IMG/VR virus record: IMGVR_UViG_2698536485_000013
From: a virus
Lineage: Duplodnaviria; Heunggongvirae; Uroviricota; Caudoviricetes
Length of the DNA stretch: 5,416 nucleotides
Strand: one strand, 5' to 3'
Numbering within the stretch: position 1 is the stretch's first letter; the number at the start of each line of letters is the position of its first letter. Positions 2 to 5,416 of this stretch are shown here, piece by piece. Under the pieces are notes generated by a model, which worked only from the letters and a program-made list of their open reading frames with translations, searched no databases and was not told where the DNA came from. Made by a program: the position numbers and the translations under genes.

Positions 2-808
2 GTCTCCAGGATTTCCGGGGCGGTTCAACAATCAATTGCAAATTATATCAGCCCAATGGCCCAGCTATGGGAGTTAGCTTCATCACGTTACCACGATGCA
101 CCAGAAAGGGCGCTCTCCTCCTGGCGAGGGCATAGGCTTGATGTGGCACAAAGTAGAGAGAGCTATGAGGCATTTTCTAACAAAGAGCTATTGCAGGTGT
201 TGCAAGTATTTTCCGGTAATTCAGCAGAAAACAAAGAAATGATAGCTTTGTGTCTTATCGGTGCTTATACAGGTATGCGGATCAATGAGATAGCAAGTCT
301 CACAATAGACGATGTGAAAGAGATCGAAGGTGTGCTGTGTTTTGAAATCACACAGGGAAAAACGAAAGCTGCGGCACGTGTTGTGCCTGTGCATAGCCTT
401 ATCACTCCATTGGTGTTATCTCTTCGTGAAAAGCCTCACAATGGCTTTTTGTTCTATCACGCCAGCATTACAGAGCGTGCTGATGGTAAACGTTCCACGT
501 GGCACACGCAGAGATTTACAAGAGCTAAACGAAAGGCTTTAGGGGAAAAGGGAACAGAAAGGAAGGTGTTTCATTCTCTGAGACACGGAGTAGCACAGCT
601 TCTTGATCGAAATCAAATTCCAGAAGACAGGATCGCCCTTCTCCTGGGCCATACACGCGGCAATACAGAAACATTCCGCACATATAGCAAGAATGCAGCT
701 TCTCCAGTAGAGCTTAAAAAATATATTGAGCTTCTACGCTACCCTGAAATAGAGAAAGGCTTATCAATCAATAAAAAATCAAATTTAAGGCGTAAAACAA
801 CGCCATAG
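2..808 (+). CDS. int: Tyrosine-type site-specific recombinase (phage-type integrase), C-terminal catalytic portion; 5'-partial, the reading frame is open to the left window edge
   Basis: The translation carries the tyrosine-recombinase catalytic signature in the right order: box I Arg (AYTGMRINEI), a Lys-containing beta-turn (TQGKTKAAARVVPV), HxLRH (FHSLRHGVAQLL), LLGH, and a C-terminal Tyr (TETFRTYSK). The frame containing ATG 56 has no stop between position 2 and 56, and 250 aa is short for this family, so the N-terminal arm/core-binding region probably lies upstream of the window. Stop is TAG at 806-808. Confidence 0.88.
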   Translation, partial: VSRISGAVQQSIANYISPMAQLWELASSRYHDAPERALSSWRGHRLDVAQSRESYEAFSNKELLQVLQVFSGNSAENKEMIALCLIGAYTGMRINEIASLTIDDVKEIEGVLCFEITQGKTKAAARVVPVHSLITPLVLSLREKPHNGFLFYHASITERADGKRSTWHTQRFTRAKRKALGEKGTERKVFHSLRHGVAQLLDRNQIPEDRIALLLGHTRGNTETFRTYSKNAASPVELKKYIELLRYPEIEKGLSINKKSNLRRKTTP

Positions 809-889: not shown

Positions 890-1603
890 CTATTCCTGTT
901 TAAAGGCAGGAGTAATAGTGTCTTCACCTTCACTACTTGATTTTTCAGTGTTAACACGTTTTTTCATATTAGCCCCGATGTTCTTAGATGGCTGTGTTTT
1001 GATAGCTACAGTGTTCACAGTGCCATAAGAAACTAATCTTATTTGCTCAAAGCTAAGATCAAATACCAGGGATTCGCTTGCCTCTTCTGTGTATTCGATT
1101 CCTGTTAAAACAACGTTCTCAAAAGTTTTATTTTCTGTAACAAGAAGAAAAGGCTGTCTACTGTCCATAATCTGATTCAGGTAGTCGATAGCTAATGATC
1201 TTCTGTTCCCGTTCACCCCTGCACTCTTTAACAAGCCAGGATCGCTTTTAATCGGTGTTTCAGTGATCCTTCCTTTAAGAGAAAACTTATTGTTTTTAAT
1301 TTGAACGTGATCAGACACAGTAGCACCATTTTCTACGGGGTAGCTTGTAACATCTGCCGAACGTCTCACGTTCACATCGTCAACACTATCAAAGGCCAGT
1401 GCCATATAATTTTCATAAACATCATTGCCAGAAGATGCCAAGCCACTGGTAACAATAGCAAATCCGTTCTCTCCTTTTGTTTTATTGGCTTTGCTATTTT
1501 CGTTTTTTGTAGAGTTTATATCTTGTTCTGCTTTGTAAACAGCCTGAACGTGTTGTTCTGGAGTATTTGCTGCACGTATGGTTAAAATCCCGGCGGTCGC
1601 CAT
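890..1603 (-). CDS. Hypothetical protein, 237 aa, last gene of the minus-strand operon; function unknown
   Basis: ATG at 1603-1601, with AAGGAAA about 13 nt upstream on the minus strand. Long uninterrupted ORF; the start lies 34 nt downstream of the 609-aa gene stop, same strand. The protein is rich in Ser/Thr/Asn/Val with a Lys-rich N-terminus and acidic C-terminus. No catalytic motif recognised. Confidence 0.7.
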   Translation of the reverse strand: MATAGILTIRAANTPEQHVQAVYKAEQDINSTKNENSKANKTKGENGFAIVTSGLASSGNDVYENYMALAFDSVDDVNVRRSADVTSYPVENGATVSDHVQIKNNKFSLKGRITETPIKSDPGLLKSAGVNGNRRSLAIDYLNQIMDSRQPFLLVTENKTFENVVLTGIEYTEEASESLVFDLSFEQIRLVSYGTVNTVAIKTQPSKNIGANMKKRVNTEKSSSEGEDTITPAFKQE

Positions 1604-1637: not shown

Positions 1638-3467
1638 TTACCCGCCGTTGGATTGTCCTGATAAGCTGGTTAATGTTAATGATTTCAAGAAGCTATCCCG
1701 ACTTGCTCTCGCTGTAAAATCCACATAATCGCTTAATCTTGATGTGTCTGAATTAATAGTAAGAGGAACCTCTGTTACCACTTCAAATGTAGGATTCAGA
1801 TTAAACACAGGAGATAAATTATAAGCCGGAGTTGTCATTGCAAGATTATTTAAAGCACCCTGTTTGAGATTGGTTATCGGTGCTTCGCTGACTGACATTT
1901 TTACATCTGACACAGAAGAATTATCATCGAAAAGCAATCCCTTAATCGTGTTAAAGAGAGAATGACTATTATCAGGTGTAGTTGTTGCAGTGCCAGCGCC
2001 TTTATATTGGTCAGGAACGAGATTAGAAAGATGCTGTTTCATCCCTTCATTGCTTAATGGCGGTGCATCACCTAAATTTTTCTGAATAGCATCTGTCTTA
2101 TCATCATTACGATTAAACCAGTTTACAATCTTCATAATAGCTTCAAAGAGACTTCCTACAGCTTCTCCCAGCTTCGTAAAATACGGAGTGAGATTAGAAA
2201 GGTTTTTCAAAAACTCTTCCGTTACTTTTGGATCGAGAGATTTCATAAAGCCGTCTACGAATGCTACTTGTCTTGCATCAGAAAGCTGTGAAAGCTGTCT
2301 GTTTAGTTCTCTGAATTTAACAATAGAGTCTTGCTGTGTTTCTGTTAGCCATTTTCCAGAGGCTTTTTGCTGATTAATACTTTCTTGTACATCTTTAACG
2401 GAACGTTGCCAATATTTTGACGTAAGCATCAAATCATCGCCCAGGTCTTCTAAACGTTGTCCAATTTGGGAGTCTGAAAACCCTTTTTTCATCATTCCAT
2501 TAACAGCCTTAGAAATTAATCCAGCCGGATTATCAGCAAATTTTTTAAGGTCGCTTTTGTTAATAACACCGATGTTTAGAAGTTCATTAATAGCATTATC
2601 ACCGCCTTTCCATTCAGATTTTCCGGTTTTCTTGTCTTTCACCAATTCAGCTTCACTGTAGGATTTTGCGGCACGTTCCCTAACATCTTTCATCTGATCC
2701 AGGTATTTCCTAGCCCCTTGATCACCCATCATAGAGTCAACGCCGTTTCTATAGGCCCATTCTGTAATGTTGTACATCTGGTTAACGTCTACACCGCCAA
2801 GCCTTGCACGTTGAATTAGCTCTCCTTGTGTCTCAGCATTGGCAAAACTATTAGCCATAAATTCACCGGTTTTACTAACCGCCATCACGCCAGCAGCAGC
2901 CGTAGCGCCTCCAAATAACAGAGCGCCCATAGTGGCGGAATTCCCTGATCCTCCCTTAACGGGGGCTAATTGAACTTTTCTGTTGCCATTAATCTTACGT
3001 TGTTGTTGTTGTAAGCGTTTCATCTGGCTATTCATACGTGCAAGCGAGATAGCCCCTTGCTCATATTGTTTCGCTATCTCTCTAGCCTGTGCAATAGCTT
3101 TGTATTGTTCCGCTACAGAGAGGCGGTGCATTGCACTGATAGAGCTTGACACATCAAGGAGCTTTAATTCTGCTTTCTCTTTACGTGCTGCTATTTGTTG
3201 CTGTTGCCTTGCCTGTGCTCTTGCTGCGGCAGCTTGTGCTCTTTGATTCTGTTTTTCTGTTTTGGCTTTCTGTTGAGCAATCTTATCTACTTCGCTTTGT
3301 GCTTTCTTATAGCCTTTAGTGACATTATCAAATCTTAATTTAGCTGGCTTGATGTTTTCTGCGAATTCCTTTAAGCCTGTAATAGAGTCTTTCGCTTTTT
3401 TCAAGCTGTCTTTATCTACACTAAATGTAACTGTGTTCTTAATTTTAGAAGTGTTAATTTCTAACAT
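1638..3467 (-). CDS. Hypothetical large protein, 609 aa: N-terminal Lys/Gln/Ala-rich predicted coiled coil, a Gly/Ala-rich hydrophobic segment, then a large C-terminal domain; function unknown
   Basis: ATG at 3467-3465 preceded by AAGGGGA about 8 nt upstream; stop TAA at 1640-1638. Residues ~55-165 (nt ~2970-3300) are heptad-like and charged (AQQKAKTEKQNQRAQAAAARAQARQQQQIAARKEKAELKLL, RLQQQQRKIN). Residues ~172-200 (nt ~2868-2954) read GGSGNSATMGALLFGGATAAAGVMAV. The start lies 18 nt downstream of the 66-aa gene stop. Confidence 0.8.
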   Translation of the reverse strand: MLEINTSKIKNTVTFSVDKDSLKKAKDSITGLKEFAENIKPAKLRFDNVTKGYKKAQSEVDKIAQQKAKTEKQNQRAQAAAARAQARQQQQIAARKEKAELKLLDVSSSISAMHRLSVAEQYKAIAQAREIAKQYEQGAISLARMNSQMKRLQQQQRKINGNRKVQLAPVKGGSGNSATMGALLFGGATAAAGVMAVSKTGEFMANSFANAETQGELIQRARLGGVDVNQMYNITEWAYRNGVDSMMGDQGARKYLDQMKDVRERAAKSYSEAELVKDKKTGKSEWKGGDNAINELLNIGVINKSDLKKFADNPAGLISKAVNGMMKKGFSDSQIGQRLEDLGDDLMLTSKYWQRSVKDVQESINQQKASGKWLTETQQDSIVKFRELNRQLSQLSDARQVAFVDGFMKSLDPKVTEEFLKNLSNLTPYFTKLGEAVGSLFEAIMKIVNWFNRNDDKTDAIQKNLGDAPPLSNEGMKQHLSNLVPDQYKGAGTATTTPDNSHSLFNTIKGLLFDDNSSVSDVKMSVSEAPITNLKQGALNNLAMTTPAYNLSPVFNLNPTFEVVTEVPLTINSDTSRLSDYVDFTARASRDSFLKSLTLTSLSGQSNGG

Positions 3468-3485: not shown

Positions 3486-3686
3486 TCATTTTTTACCACC
3501 TTCTTTGCTTAAGAAATGGTGTAGAGCCTGATCAATACTCTCGTTTAGTCTGAACATACGGGCTTTTACTCCTTCATATGGAACATCTAAGAGAGAACAT
3601 AGATATTTCAGATTTAACAAGCCTCTAGAATCATTAGCATCTAAATGTACGTGTACACCATTTTTTGATTTCAGAATCACTTCCAT
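3486..3686 (-). CDS. Small hypothetical protein, 66 aa, tightly linked upstream of the 609-aa gene
   Basis: ATG at 3686-3684 with GAGAGGTGA about 7 nt upstream on the minus strand; stop 18 nt before the 609-aa gene start. Confidence is lowered by the short length and lack of recognisable motifs. Confidence 0.55.
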   Translation of the reverse strand: MEVILKSKNGVHVHLDANDSRGLLNLKYLCSLLDVPYEGVKARMFRLNESIDQALHHFLSKEGGKK

Positions 3687-3710: not shown

Positions 3711-3755
3711 AAAATAAATAAAAAAAGGCGAAGCGTGTTATTCACGCCACGCCTC
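3711..3755 (-). terminator. Putative intrinsic (rho-independent) terminator or attenuator on the minus strand, between the 342-aa gene and the 66-aa gene
   Basis: Seen in sequence, read on the minus strand: GC-rich interrupted hairpin (3726-3730 AGGCG with 3751-3755 CGCCT; 3733-3737 GCGTG with 3743-3747 CACGC; loop TTATT), immediately followed by a T-rich run (reverse complement of 3711-3725 = TTTTTTATTTATTTT). It begins 18 nt after the 342-aa gene stop. Confidence 0.55.
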
Positions 3756-3772
3756 TATTACACGTTAAAATA

Positions 3773-4801
3773 TTATTTAACAGTGATTTGAACGGAGAAG
3801 CCAACGCCGTGGTTTACAACCATCTGGCTATTCTCTGTAACAACGTTAACAGCATCACCACGAGAAGATTCATAGCTGTAGCTATACACCTCAGCAGGAG
3901 CGGCATTGATCAGTTCAAAGGTGCTGGAAGCAGCCCCGTAGATGTTCTGATATACATTAGAGCCTTTAGCAAACTTCGGAACCGCTACAGCGTCTGCGGT
4001 CATATGTGCAAGGTGTAGCGGATCTACCAGTTTAACAACATCAATGTTAGTTCCTGGAATAGTGAACGCTGTCACCCCCGGTAGCAGGTCACGACGCTGA
4101 TACACAACGTTCCCTTCTTCCAGTGGGCTTACATACTGGAATGCGTTTGCCATACCCGCAGAGAATCGAATTGCAGAGAAGGCTTCAGGTTTACAGAACA
4201 CAACAACACGCTCAATGGTTGCAGCCTGTTTTTGTGCCTTAGCAATCATATCCGTAGCAATCTGATCAAATTCTTTAAAAATCTTCGTGGTGTCAGTGCT
4301 GGAAGCGTTCACAGTGGCTTTCATAGCTGATACGTTAAACAGCTTGCCCCATTCGATAAGAACATCATCAGTTTTAGGCGTGTAAGTTTTACCGCTAAAC
4401 AGAGATGCAGCCAGCACGCTCTCTTTTGTACGCTGATACGCTACGTGGTGTTTAGCAACATAGTCAGCATAGATATCAGTGAGTGTTTCCTGAAAATCAG
4501 TGCCAGGCTTACGCTTGCCTTGAACATCAGAAGGACGGATCACATCTTCACGAAGAAAATACGGGATTTCAATAAGCCATTCTTTACCTTGTTCTCGCTT
4601 AGTAACGTTGTGTTCAGAAGAGAAACGAGAGGTTTCTTTGTTAAAGAGAGATTCGTTGCTTTCGACAAGCTGGGAAACAGCTACTTTATGAGAACTAACG
4701 CCCACCGGATCAGTGAAGTCGAGGGTAGAGAGCAGAAAGTTACGCGTGCTGTGTGTCTGGAAAAGCGGAGCTAAATCAACGTAATCATTACCTAGAATCA
4801 T
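3773..4801 (-). CDS. Hypothetical protein, 342 aa, second gene of the minus-strand operon; function unknown (structural versus enzymatic not resolvable from sequence)
   Basis: ATG at 4801-4799 preceded by AAAGGAA about 7 nt upstream; long clean ORF, with only a 15-nt gap to the upstream gene remnant. Followed by the terminator-like hairpin. C-terminal third is rich in beta-formers (Val/Tyr/Ser/Thr). Confidence 0.8.
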   Translation of the reverse strand: MILGNDYVDLAPLFQTHSTRNFLLSTLDFTDPVGVSSHKVAVSQLVESNESLFNKETSRFSSEHNVTKREQGKEWLIEIPYFLREDVIRPSDVQGKRKPGTDFQETLTDIYADYVAKHHVAYQRTKESVLAASLFSGKTYTPKTDDVLIEWGKLFNVSAMKATVNASSTDTTKIFKEFDQIATDMIAKAQKQAATIERVVVFCKPEAFSAIRFSAGMANAFQYVSPLEEGNVVYQRRDLLPGVTAFTIPGTNIDVVKLVDPLHLAHMTADAVAVPKFAKGSNVYQNIYGAASSTFELINAAPAEVYSYSYESSRGDAVNVVTENSQMVVNHGVGFSVQITVK

Positions 4802-4816
4802 TTATTATTCCTTTTA

Positions 4817-4998
4817 TTAAGAAGTGAAAACAGAATGGAACCCTTCAAGCTGAAAGCCTTTTTTAATTAATGCTGTTTTTGCTGCTTCACTTACAGCATT
4901 CAGGGCATCAGCTTTGATGCATACAAGCCCAGCATTGCTACGTAGCACATCTACAGGCTTGTTTTCCCCAGCCGTTACAAATTCACTCAGAACAACAT
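4817..4998 (-). pseudogene. 3' remnant (~59 codons) of the operon's 5'-proximal gene, interrupted by the IS3 insertion
   Basis: The minus-strand frame is open from the IS3 junction (4999) down to TAA at 4819-4817 and continues into IS3 sequence. The only start in the ORF track (5014) lies inside the IS3 terminal repeat, so it is fortuitous. Tight 15-nt spacing and an RBS for the next gene support a real, formerly longer gene. Confidence 0.5.
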
Positions 4999-5037
4999 TG
5001 ATCTTACCCAGCAATAGTGGACACGCGGCTAAGTGAG
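4999..5037 (+). repeat. IS3 left terminal inverted repeat (IRL), approximate extent
   Basis: Established knowledge: the IS3 terminal inverted repeats are about 39 bp and begin with 5'-TG. The exact inner boundary is not verifiable here because the right end is outside the window. Confidence 0.6.
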
Positions 5038-5063
5038 TAAACTCTCAGTCAGAGGTGACTCAC

Positions 5064-5363
5064 ATGACAAAAACAGTATCAACCAGTAAAAAACCCCGTA
5101 AACAGCATTCGCCTGAATTTCGCAGTGAAGCCCTGAAGCTTGCTGAACGCATCGGTGTTACTGCCGCAGCCCGTGAACTCAGCCTGTATGAATCACAGCG
5201 CTACAACTGGCGCAGTAAACAGCAAAATCAGCAGACGTCTTCTGAACGTGAACTGGAGATGTCTACCGAGATTGCACGTCTCAAACGCCAGCTGGCAGAA
5301 CGGGATGAAGAGCTGGCTATCCTCCAAAAGGCCGCGACATACTTCGCGAAGCGCCTGAAATGA
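5064..5363 (+). CDS. insE: IS3 transposase OrfA (helix-turn-helix DNA-binding and leucine-zipper component)
   Basis: The protein MTKTVSTSKKPRKQHSPEFRSEALKLAERIGVTAAARELSLYESQ...LKRQLAERDEELAILQKAATYFAKRLK matches IS3 OrfA as I recall it. ATG at 5064 has GAGGTGA 5 nt upstream. The ORF track's start at 5055 is an in-frame GTG and is probably not the real start. Stop TGA at 5361-5363. Confidence 0.9.
   Translation: MTKTVSTSKKPRKQHSPEFRSEALKLAERIGVTAAARELSLYESQRYNWRSKQQNQQTSSERELEMSTEIARLKRQLAERDEELAILQKAATYFAKRLK
5326..5363 (+). promoter_or_regulatory. Probable programmed -1 ribosomal frameshift region of IS3 (A-AAG slippery motif near the orfA 3' end, upstream of the orfA/orfB overlap)
   Basis: Seen in sequence: CAA AAG at 5325-5330 in the orfA frame, followed by GC-rich sequence and the ATGA overlap. 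Established knowledge: IS3-family elements make the OrfAB transposase by -1 frameshifting. The exact slip site is assigned from memory and is not verified. Confidence 0.4.
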
Positions 5364-5416
5364 AGTATGTCTTTATTGAAAAACATCAAGCTGAGTTCAG
5401 CATCAAAGCAATGTGC
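5360..5416 (+). CDS. insF: IS3 transposase OrfB (DDE catalytic component), first 19 codons only; 3'-partial at the window edge
   Basis: ATG at 5360-5362 overlaps the orfA stop (ATGA) in the -1 frame and encodes MKYVFIEKHQAEFSIKAMC, the recognisable N-terminus of IS3 OrfB. Confidence 0.85.
   Translation, partial: MKYVFIEKHQAEFSIKAMC

Follow-up and report, generated by a model that had tools for sequence, protein, structure and literature searches.

Introduction

Phage satellites were long believed to take the tails of their helpers unchanged. Only in 2025-2026 were the PLEs of Vibrio cholerae, small integrative elements that live on the large virulent myovirus ICP1, shown to put a tape measure protein (TMP) and a hub protein of their own into helper tails (PMC12987554). 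Each PLE has genes for a TMP and a chaperone, and in many cases also for a baseplate hub protein, their identity to the ICP1 counterparts being 19-41%; the satellite TMP (582 vs 677 aa) is incorporated into the tails, these tails are ~11 nm shorter, and deletion of the PLE tmp gene decreases transduction by ~99.9% (PMC12987554). The EPIP satellites of Mycolicibacterium are reported to encode both a major capsid protein (MCP) and a TMP, with an altered tail length (bioRxiv 2025, PMC12822802).

The TMP of the virulent E. coli phage phi92, gp134, has been described by cryo-EM. It forms a trimer inside the contractile tail tube, filling its lumen, and the number of tube rings, 24 in the phi92 tail, is determined by the length of the protein; its C-terminal helix docks within the baseplate hub, where residues 631-656 are located, below the hexameric tube initiator gp135 (PMC13450770). 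We consider here a gene related to that of gp134, found in a window of 5,416 nt, by which we mean the whole stretch of DNA analysed.

A tape measure protein of the phi92 family

The 609-aa ORF proposed in the original prediction is present at exactly 1638-3467; it starts with ATG, has an AAGGGG Shine-Dalgarno sequence 8 nt 5' of the start, and lies on the minus strand, which the prediction had left unstated. Its product, accession WP_032314455, matches PHROG 16051, "tail length tape measure protein" (E 8.8e-54), and chain V of PDB entry 21vq, that is, phi92 gp134 (E 1.8e-37). In the BLASTP comparison with gp134 the match (E 8e-34) is collinear to the last residue, and a separate one covers the N-terminal 66 aa (55% identity). 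The Pfam scan of the protein gave no match. In the Foldseek search, which had been suggested as a check, no PDB entry was found at E<0.001, and the search against viral models returned TMPs.

The gene directly 3' of the ORF (890..1603, minus strand) encodes a 237-aa tube initiator, accession WP_000179449, annotated as "phage baseplate protein" and assigned to Dit_like (Pfam PF21821, E 3e-29). It is 60% identical to phi92 gp135 and 53-60% identical to its counterparts across Stephanstirmvirinae, and in the PDB it matches 21vq_N (E 2e-78) and also the tube initiators 9cuy_K and 7yfz_a. The order of the two genes is that of gp134 and gp135 in phi92. Thus, given the full-length homology to gp134, the match to PHROG 16051 and the adjoining tube-initiator gene, the ORF product is, as judged by sequence, a tail TMP of the phi92 gp134 / Stephanstirmvirinae family. 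From the four unranked options of the original prediction this retains the tape measure or internal virion protein, while the homology to gp134 speaks against a membrane sensor or effector and against a defence scaffold.

Other features by which a TMP is usually recognised were considered as well. The adjoining tube-initiator or baseplate-hub gene is present, being the downstream one described above, and the protein is long and mostly alpha-helical, with a C-terminal docking segment according to the AlphaFold2 (AF2) model and the alignment to gp134. A chaperone gene (G/GT-like) 5' of the TMP was not recognised: tblastn against the phi92 region revealed no gp132 homolog in the island that carries the gene, and, unlike in phi92, neither gp132 nor gp133 has a homolog 5' of the TMP. 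A helper-encoded tail assembly chaperone may be used instead.

Domain architecture

The island TMP, phi92 gp134 and the orthologs of the latter in Justusliebigvirus and Phapecoctavirus are collinear over their entire length, sharing an N-terminus of ~40 aa, helices, a Gly/Ala segment, a central domain, a variable region and a docking helix. All parts described below are on the minus strand. The N-terminal module (residues 1-41; 3345..3467) is 75% identical to phi92 gp134 and 62% identical to the TMP of phage phiWec188, whereas its identity to other island-type TMPs is only 32-65%, below the phi92 figure. Two of its residues, N11 and D18, are near-invariant across the family.

It is followed by a helical "ruler" region rich in Ala, Gln, Lys and Arg (residues 46-162; 2982..3332), most of which AF2 models as long helices (46-111, 118-136 and 142-162; pLDDT of 83-98). 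The original prediction described residues ~55-165 as low-complexity and Gln/Ala/Lys-rich, and both the composition and an entropy minimum bear this out: Ala, Gln, Lys and Arg constitute 58% of residues 55-165 vs 24.5% of the remainder (Fisher p = 5e-11), there are no Pro and two Gly, and the 40-residue window of lowest entropy, starting from residue 61, has 2.66 bits vs the median of 3.65. The three motifs quoted in support of the description are located at residues 79-104, 151-160 and 172-197. The claim of a heptad-like coiled coil holds only in part. The helices are long, and within residues 46-111 the hydrophobic periodicity reaches significance at a period of 3.6 residues (p = 0.008) and not at the heptad period of 3.5 residues (p = 0.3). 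Thus, a helix at 46-111 is supported, and we refrain from calling it a canonical coiled coil.

In the aligned family, variation in length is confined to the region N-terminal of the hydrophobic segment. The TMPs from the six loci with a confirmed island context have 596-625 aa, and the phage TMPs, 651-659 aa, so that the island proteins are shorter by ~40-60 aa; relatives with phage-type inserts have 634-659 aa. The inserts are additional Pro/Gly-rich and Arg/Glu-rich stretches in the helical region of TMPs from Stephanstirmvirinae-type phages, and the island protein differs from gp134 in lacking them in its N-terminal half (609 vs 651-659 aa).

The Gly/Ala-rich hydrophobic segment (residues 172-204; 2856..2954), as delimited by the Kyte-Doolittle profile and the alignment, is real: the hydropathy maximum of the protein is at 179-197 (19-residue mean of 1.6), and a conserved hydrophobic segment is found at the equivalent position in 37/37 aligned family members, phage TMPs included, with 19-residue means of 0.8-1.85. 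AF2 assigns it pLDDT of 31-41 and leaves most of it (172-188) without secondary structure. If this segment were a transmembrane helix, the protein could be a membrane-anchored coiled-coil sensor, effector or defence scaffold, and indeed it is a single hydrophobic segment at the Kyte-Doolittle threshold (1.6) preceded by long helices. However, the full-length collinear homology to a virion TMP already contradicts this explanation, the segment is common to phage TMPs too, no sensor, enzyme, output or defence domain was found, and the neighbours are virion proteins; we regard a membrane-anchored protein as hardly credible.

The remainder was originally described as one C-terminal domain of about 400 residues; in the AF2 model it resolves into three parts, of which only the first, residues 205-400, is confidently folded, the second, 403-575, is of low confidence, and the third, 579-605, is a helix. 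The first is a conserved all-alpha central domain (2268..2855) with pLDDT above 90. The second is a variable region (1743..2261) with pLDDT below 50 and with identity of 13-28% to all relatives. The C-terminal helix (residues 579-609 by alignment; 1641..1733) aligns to gp134 residues ~630-658 and is thus equivalent to the baseplate-docked end of gp134, as the alignment spans the resolved residues 631-656. There is no beta-rich domain in the model.

The two ends of the protein and its body show different degrees of conservation. Residues 566-607 are 69% identical to the TMP of phage phiWec188 and 71% identical to the island homolog P0126, and only 24% identical to P0122, the closest relative overall. 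Compared with TMPs of E. coli phages, the termini are 69-75% identical and the body, 17-32% (17% in the helical body, 31-32% in the central domain); for phi92 gp134 and its orthologs the identity is just 26-28% overall, yet 69-75% at both ends. Such an end-matched, body-divergent pattern may be read as a map of the TMP parts that touch other tail components.

Neighbouring genes in the window

Directly 5' of the TMP gene (3486..3686, minus strand) is a gene for a conserved 66-aa protein, with a homolog at the equivalent position in 6/6 island contexts examined. It has no similarity to phi92 gp133 and no family match above noise in Pfam or PHROG; the Pfam scan of its family yielded single weak HTH-type matches only. 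Upstream of it is the gene for the MCP (342 aa; accession WP_032314456; 3773..4801, minus strand), a protein of the HK97 fold (Pfam Phage_cap_E, E 6e-14) that matches PDB entries 9zbi_A and 21uy_N and is 22% identical over the full length to the phi92 MCP gp124 (E 4e-10).

Further 5' is the C-terminal remnant of a gene for a ~120-aa protein (4817..5002, minus strand), interrupted by an IS3 insertion and annotated in RefSeq as incomplete, with the N-terminus missing. The 120-aa gene is intact in two related loci, L002 and L012, and is conserved across the island family; the protein does not match the phi92 cement protein gp123. The insertion itself, the start of an IS3 element (OrfA; 5055..5416, plus strand; HTH_Tnp_1, RefSeq IS3-like transposase), is missing from related islands and is not part of the system. 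At the other end of the window is the C-terminal part of an integrase (DUF6538 and tyrosine recombinase; 26..808, plus strand; Pfam Phage_integrase, incomplete in RefSeq). Its N-terminus was removed by a second IS3-family element, distinct from the one at the 120-aa gene, and the intact integrase, of 425 aa, is retained in L002 and L012.

The window copy is crippled for mobility, as both the integrase and the 120-aa gene are interrupted by IS3-family insertions.

The 12.5-kb island

The TMP gene resides not in a phage, as does its homolog in the 148-kb virulent phi92, but in a 12.5-kb element integrated at a tRNA-Thr gene (thrW). In the intact copy, two 20-nt att repeats corresponding to the tRNA-Thr 3' end are spaced 12,522 bp apart, and the att core is ATGGTGCCGATAATAGGAGT. 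E. coli Res13-Lact-PEB08-01 (NZ_CP062865) and the O26:H11 strain 11368 are among the strains whose island is intact. An ORF-poor gap of 2 kb contains an array of four to five iteron-like repeats, and a 217-229-aa HTH_36 protein is similar to replication-initiator PHROGs of phages (E 3e-9) and is a putative replication initiator.

The CP4-6 element of E. coli K-12 is also located at thrW. We rejected the identity of the island with CP4-6, which has no homolog of any island gene, the integrase included.

The original prediction spoke of an operon whose nature would follow from that of the protein. There is no phage tail module here: the locus is a minimal integrative island in which the capsid protein, the TMP and the tube initiator are the only virion-type genes. 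Pfam and PHROG searches with the island proteins revealed no portal, terminase, sheath or tube, and in the 12.5 kb there is no hub, spike, wedge, fibre or lysis gene either; the remaining ORFs, of 50-230 aa, have no matches to structural proteins, nor could we recognise a tail assembly chaperone or a packaging determinant such as a small terminase. Since a capsid protein, a TMP and a tube initiator are encoded together, one could think of a self-sufficient particle, such as a tailocin, a gene transfer agent or a very small phage, whose TMP measures its own tail. Given that neither sheath, tube, hub, spike, wedge and fibre nor portal, terminase and lysis genes are found, and that a 609-aa TMP would imply a tail of ~90 nm built from hundreds of tube and sheath subunits not encoded by the island, this explanation is very improbable.

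On the other hand, several features are those of a satellite. Most virion genes are missing from this small integrative element, which has att sites and, in L002 and L012, an intact integrase; its own TMP and its hub-type protein are homologous to and yet divergent from those of virulent phages. Thus, going by its gene content, the island has the layout of a phage satellite that has not been described; searches of full-text literature retrieved no account of it, nor of any satellite that depends on phi92- or rV5-type phages. This island context is more interesting than the identity of the protein itself.

The same genes could serve defence by interference with assembly. If the TMP and the tube initiator were dominant-negative decoys poisoning tail assembly of an infecting phage, their co-assembly with the phage hub, chaperone or tube would protect the population, whether or not the island is transferred; this possibility is compatible with a satellite rather than exclusive of it. 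As expected of a poison subunit, the TMP ends, which contact the tail, are close to those of E. coli phage TMPs, and the body is divergent and shorter. Interference with tail assembly is documented for Tai, for Tab (PMC10884400) and for Rta of PLE11 (PMC12987554), and an island with intact structural genes persists in a strain with a destroyed integrase. However, the conserved full-length capsid protein, att sites, integrase and putative replication module would be superfluous for pure interference, and no known defence family is matched: with PADLOC, the TMP gave nothing beyond a coiled-coil match to JetC of 12 bits (E 0.007), and nine neighbouring proteins gave none. In PLEs, moreover, the TMP serves the satellite virions, and it is a separate small protein that interferes (PMC12987554). 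Hence we consider the decoy explanation unlikely, though still deserving attention.

Distribution and conservation

The gene was found in 313/5426 complete E. coli genomes, always on the chromosome, and 299/313 of these retain at least 80% of it; the island is thus present in ~6% of complete E. coli genomes, EHEC O26:H11 among them. A search of genome contigs with 10 island-type TMP sequences yielded homologs in Buttiauxella, Phytobacter, Citrobacter, Kluyvera and Enterobacter. The island gene order (~120 aa, MCP, 62-76 aa, TMP, with or without Dit_like) is repeated in five further contexts, all from other Enterobacteriaceae, where the TMPs are 30-39% identical to that of the E. coli island, and in 4/5 of them the integrase closes the order. 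The tube initiator is missing in 4/6 island contexts and hence is not a core part of the island. In IMG/VR, 12 loci matched; all of them are prophage calls from isolate genomes and not virus-particle data, and so are uninformative on packaging.

These observations bear on a further alternative, namely that the island is a decaying prophage remnant, in which the TMP, tube-initiator and capsid genes are functionless leftovers of a complete phage. Signs of decay do exist: in the window there are two IS3-family insertions, and the integrase and a neighbouring gene are truncated; in one strain the TMP is frameshifted; and thrW is a site where cryptic elements, among them CP4-6 of K-12, are known to accumulate. 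However, among E. coli variants dN/dS of the TMP is 0.07-0.09 at dS of 0.13-0.17, other genera, with TMPs that are 30-39% identical, have the same few genes in the same order, which independent decay would not produce, and the intact copy keeps the att repeats 12.5 kb apart, the iterons and the putative replication gene. Moreover, the homologous phages are virulent, with genomes of ~148 kb, and no integrase was found in the structural-gene stretches of ~19.5 kb examined in phi92 and phiWec188, which makes a lysogenic ancestor of the phi92 type unlikely. We therefore consider a prophage remnant improbable.

Comparison with known satellites and a possible mode of action

The PLEs of V. cholerae, with their TMP, TAC and BhuB module, are among the closest described systems. 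In both cases, a small integrative element is associated with a large virulent myovirus (ICP1 for PLEs, a presumed helper for the island), it has its own TMP, which is shorter than that of the helper and ~20-30% identical to it, and it may have a homolog of the hub or tube initiator with a higher identity (41% in PLE, 60% in the island). The differences are in the capsid, which PLEs produce by remodelling the stolen ICP1 capsid protein with TcaP, whereas the island encodes its own capsid protein, and in the absence from the island of an identified equivalent of TAC or Rta. The function has been demonstrated experimentally for PLEs (PMC12987554), and for the island it is deduced from the genes. 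No sequence relationship between the two emerged: when the phage collection was searched with the TMP, no Vibrio phage was among the matches listed; the phages listed infect Escherichia, Klebsiella, Citrobacter, Salmonella and similar bacteria, and the host range of the island is Enterobacteriaceae.

EPIPs, which are small satellites, resemble the island in the reported presence of both an MCP and a TMP, but they are actinobacterial, their siphovirus helper is a prophage, and we found no counterpart in the island of their small terminase, scaffold and head-tail connectors. Capsid-forming PICIs (cf-PICIs), similarly, are integrated satellites of Enterobacteriaceae with their own capsid protein, and some have putative tmp genes; however, their full head and packaging module comprises a portal, a protease or scaffold, connectors and a small terminase with HNH besides the capsid protein, and of all these only the capsid protein was found in the island.

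The most likely interpretation is that the gene encodes a satellite's alternative TMP, which would build chimeric tails in the manner of the Vibrio PLEs. Taken as a whole, the explanation in which a phi92-family TMP encoded by a 12.5-kb satellite-like island builds chimeric tails on a helper is probably correct. The process would start when a virulent phi92-like or Phapecoctavirus-like myovirus infects an island-bearing cell. The TMP would then come from the island, as would, in E. coli, the tube initiator; on helper-encoded hubs these would nucleate polymerisation of the tube and sheath, and the resulting chimeric tails would join capsids made of the island capsid protein. As the island TMP has ~42-50 residues less than the phage ones (609 vs 651-659 aa), the difference being entirely in the N-terminal helical region, the chimeric tails would be shorter than the helper tails by ~7 nm, or about two tube rings, which would leave ~22 instead of 24, at 1.5 Å per residue and presuming that the folded central domain keeps the proportionality. 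In line with the general biology of TMPs, the Gly/Ala-rich segment of the island TMP probably acts after ejection, when the DNA passes through the membrane, rather than as a resident membrane anchor; this is the weakest step of the scheme.

A broader proposal, which we consider nearly as plausible as not, is that the islands form a new family of Enterobacteriaceae satellites exploiting virulent ~148-kb phi92- and Phapecoctavirus-type myoviruses, which would make small capsids from their own capsid protein, re-program the contractile helper tail with a shorter TMP and a tube initiator of their own, and keep the TMP termini matched to those of the helper. The match of the termini has possibly been achieved through recombination with the helper.

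Implications

Taken alone, the protein is ordinary: the question that the original prediction posed is answered by a plain tape measure protein. The consequences would lie in the island. If the chimeric-tail interpretation is true, this would be the second independent lineage of satellites with chimeric tails after the Vibrio PLEs and the first in E. coli, a case apparently unrelated to PLEs in sequence and residing in ~6% of complete E. coli genomes. Phage therapy and phage typing make use of large virulent phages like the presumed helpers, and strain-specific resistance to such phages, or their hijacking, would then be expected. With the tail shortened by a measurable two rings, the island would also provide a tractable E. 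coli system in which to study the reasons why satellites alter tail length and the way in which the TMP to be incorporated is chosen.

Architecture and identity of the tape measure protein

The ORF at 1638-3467 lies on the minus strand, starts with ATG and encodes 609 aa, and the three motifs quoted from it in the original prediction were located at residues 79-104, 151-160 and 172-197. Residues 55-165 indeed form a low-complexity stretch: Ala, Gln, Lys and Arg make up 58% of it, vs 24.5% of the rest of the protein (Fisher p = 5e-11), Pro is absent and Gly occurs twice, and the lowest-complexity 40-residue window of the protein falls within it. The strongly heptad-like character claimed for this stretch was not borne out: in residues 46-111 hydrophobic periodicity reaches significance at 3.6 residues (p = 0.008), whereas at 3.5 it does not (p = 0.3). 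The Gly/Ala-rich hydrophobic segment is, as claimed, the hydropathy maximum of the protein (Kyte-Doolittle 19-residue mean 1.6 at 179-197). In an AlphaFold2 model built from a 35-sequence alignment (mean pLDDT 68.5), helices at residues 46-111, 118-136 and 142-162 (pLDDT 83-98) are followed by a low-confidence stretch (172-204), a confidently folded all-alpha domain (205-400; pLDDT 92-98), a low-confidence region (403-575) and a terminal helix (579-605). The C-terminal part of about 400 residues thus exists, but comprises three distinct parts rather than one domain. The observation is confirmed in substance, with the heptad pattern and the single C-terminal domain corrected.

A Pfam search with the 609-aa protein gave no match, while PHROGs assigned it to family 16051, "tail length tape measure protein" (E 8.8e-54). 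In a tblastn search against 50,697 phage records we obtained 134 matches; those listed are large myoviruses (~145-151 kb) of the Stephanstirmvirinae, namely phi92 and other Justusliebigvirus, and Phapecoctavirus, with many of the matches annotated as a tape measure protein (TMP). The protein is collinear through the last residue with gp134 (659 aa) of the virulent E. coli phage phi92, the identity being 55% in residues 1-66 and 26% in residues 86-609 (E 8e-34), and its PDB match is the same protein (21vq chain V, E 1.8e-37). In phi92, whose tail has 24 tube and sheath rings, gp134 is a trimeric TMP with C-terminal residues 631-656 resolved inside the baseplate, and gp135 is the hexameric tube initiator (PMC13450770). 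The gene downstream of the TMP gene (890-1603, 237 aa, Pfam Dit_like) shares 60% identity with gp135 and matches 21vq chain N (E 2e-78) and further solved tube initiators; hence, the gp134-gp135 order is kept in the window. These comparisons show the 609-aa protein to be a TMP homolog, adding a member to an already known family, and this homology contradicts its being a membrane sensor or a defence scaffold. The family is narrow: among 1.84 billion representative proteins, scanned exhaustively with HMMER, only 73 clusters matched, some 40 of which are full length (584-715 aa).

In the alignment of 37 family members, including two phages (phi92 and phiWec188) and six members with a confirmed island context, we distinguish a conserved N-terminal module (~40 aa), a helical region of variable length, the Gly/Ala-rich hydrophobic segment, a conserved central domain with invariant D257, K260, D261 and E340, a variable region, and a conserved C-terminal stretch (~45 aa). 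The hydrophobic segment is present in every member and is almost always its hydropathy maximum. Since the phage TMPs have it too, it belongs to TMPs as such and does not mark a membrane-anchored cellular protein; by analogy with other TMPs, it may act after ejection, in crossing the membrane. Between the central domain and the C-terminus the spacing hardly varies (about 300-370 residues), and members differ in length only N-terminal of the hydrophobic segment. There, phi92, phiWec188 and similar relatives of unconfirmed origin (634-659 aa) carry extra Pro/Gly-rich and Arg/Glu-rich inserts; the six TMPs with a confirmed island context (596-625 aa) lack them.

Gene content of the island

The whole window matches the chromosome of E. 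coli 13E0725 at 100% identity. The minus strand carries, in order, a truncated ~120-aa gene, a 342-aa capsid protein, a 66-aa protein, the TMP and the tube initiator, after which comes a tyrosine integrase on the plus strand. The capsid protein (3773-4801, minus strand; HK97 fold, Phage_cap_E) is 22% identical over its full length to the phi92 major capsid protein gp124 (E 4e-10), vs 60% for the tube initiator; therefore, the structural genes of the island differ in history. The best phage matches of the capsid protein are in Pseudomonas myoviruses (20-25%). Some 25 nt past the capsid gene stop there is a GC-rich hairpin followed by a T-run (3732-3748, minus strand), such sites being no more numerous in the window than in shuffled sequence. 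Phage late operons are often attenuated after the capsid gene.

The 66-aa protein (3486-3686, minus strand) is encoded directly upstream of the TMP, and each of the six island contexts has a counterpart at this position. The C-terminal half of the protein is helix-turn-helix-like (LCSLLDVPYEGVKARMFR), with only weak, single-member HTH matches. Candidate roles are those of a chaperone, of a factor for packaging specificity, or of an inhibitor like PLE11 Rta.

Two IS3-family insertions have affected this copy (regions 4817-5416 and 1-808): the first interrupts the conserved ~120-aa gene that precedes the capsid gene, and the second took away the N-terminus of the integrase, leaving the capsid, TMP and tube-initiator genes intact. 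This copy of the island cannot move by itself. In E. coli Res13-Lact-PEB08-01 (L012) the island is intact, flanked by 20-nt direct repeats with the sequence of the tRNA-Thr 3' end, 12,522 bp apart. Four to five iteron-like direct repeats (TAACAGAATTCTGTGGGGGT; L012 21178-21321, outside the window) sit there in ~2 kb that are poor in ORFs, with the small-gene block on one side and a 179-aa recombinase-family gene on the other, and look like a candidate replication origin. A comparable ORF-poor gap is seen in four related islands (L005, L007, L008 and L010). A 217-aa protein of the intact island has a 229-aa counterpart in strain E423 (L002) that matches phage replication-initiator families; the series of small ORFs gave no matches. 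At L012 3720-11179, a P4-like satellite (integrase, retron-type reverse transcriptase, psu, an ogr/delta fragment and primase) lies in tandem with the island at the same thrW site, so that two satellite-type elements are stacked there. Identification of the island with CP4-6 was rejected, as none of the island genes has a homolog in the K-12 region beside intF.

The intact island contains no portal, terminase, protease, sheath, tube, hub, fibre or lysis gene, and no tail chaperone or packaging determinant was recognised in it. This gene content excludes a self-sufficient tailocin or phage.

Conservation of the island

That the island is a decayed prophage is contradicted by several observations. 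Among three E. coli variants (dS 0.13-0.17) the TMP has dN/dS of 0.07-0.09, with no nonsynonymous changes in the last 49 codons, showing purifying selection. Among 5426 complete E. coli genomes, 313 have the TMP gene, always on the chromosome, with at least 80% of its length present in 299; E. fergusonii and E. albertii contribute protein clusters as well.

The nearest relatives outside Escherichia are 29-39% identical. The five of these whose contexts were examined lie in the arrangement of the window, with proteins of ~120 aa, 343-348 aa (capsid), 62-76 aa and 596-625 aa (TMP), with or without Dit_like; the integrase adjoins the TMP in four of them. Both small neighbours are conserved members of the island family. 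A scan of one genome per species found homologs in Buttiauxella, Phytobacter, Citrobacter, Kluyvera and Enterobacter. Prophages decaying independently would not repeatedly arrive at one minimal gene set. Where the contig reaches the far end of the island, it carries variable replication genes, the ORF-poor gap and a 186-aa recombinase-like gene. Between related islands the replication gene varies, its product being a DEAD-like 482-aa protein (L008 4830-6278), an unrelated 332-aa protein (L010 4277-5275) or an HTH_36 initiator-like one (L002 21887-22576), with the capsid-TMP block remaining constant; this resembles modular swapping in PICIs. The phages homologous to the island TMP are virulent, and no integrase was found in the structural-gene stretches examined of phi92 and phiWec188. 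The low dN/dS, the prevalence in E. coli and the recurring arrangement argue for a function of the island.

Terminal mosaic and proposed role

With the window TMP as the reference, we compared segment-wise identity to phi92, phiWec188 and island TMPs. The N-terminal 41 aa are 75% identical to phi92 and 32-65% to other island TMPs. The N-terminus of a TMP is taken to contact the chaperone or the head-proximal tail end. The helical body is 17%, and the central domain 31-32%, identical to phi92/phiWec188. The C-terminal 42 aa are 69% identical to phiWec188 and 71% to the island protein P0126, vs 24% to P0122, the closest overall relative. The C-terminus is the baseplate-docking part, as in phi92 gp134 (PMC13450770). 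Termini resembling those of E. coli Stephanstirmvirinae, on a shorter divergent body, fit a protein that has to plug into the tail parts of another phage, and also fit repeated island-phage exchange. In phiWec188/190 the last ~45 residues of the TMP (phiWec188, L004 9001-10956) are 69% identical to the island TMP, whereas exactly this piece is different in other Phapecoctavirus TMPs (34% for P0137); this suggests that island and phage have exchanged the baseplate-docking end.

The TMP homology, the island context, the purifying selection and the end-matching of the TMP are established. We infer that the island is probably a satellite of phi92- or Phapecoctavirus-type phages, and that its TMP, together with the tube initiator in E. 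coli, would replace those of the helper during tail assembly, yielding chimeric tails. Taking ~1.5 Å per residue, as is common for tape measures (1.6 Å, after Katsura 1987, in the PLE study cited below), the 42-50 residues by which the TMP is shorter would be expected to shorten tails by ~6-8 nm, or about two of the 24 phi92 rings. The end-matching, as well as known tail-interference defences, is also compatible with the TMP and the tube initiator being a decoy that poisons helper tail assembly, but such a decoy leaves the capsid, integrase and replication genes unexplained; the two roles may coexist.

The proposed satellite role has an experimental precedent. Every Vibrio cholerae PLE, a satellite of the virulent myovirus ICP1, encodes a TMP and a chaperone, and many also a baseplate hub protein, with 19-41% identity to the ICP1 proteins; PLE virions contain the PLE TMP (582 vs 677 aa) and exclude that of ICP1, tails measure 94 nm vs 106 nm, and tmp deletion reduces transduction by ~99.9% (PMC11838301, published as PMC12987554). 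As the hub gene is not in all PLEs, so the Dit_like gene is optional in the islands. The EPIP satellites of Mycolicibacterium combine a capsid protein with a TMP, as the island does (PMC12822802), and the SaPIbov5 capsid homolog Ccm sets a precedent for a satellite-encoded capsid-protein homolog. The IMG/VR matches to the island are prophage calls rather than particle data, and in literature weighted away from subscription journals we found no published description of it. The main interest lies in the element rather than in the TMP fold: the setting of this TMP would add a new form to the recently recognised satellites that encode their own tape measure.
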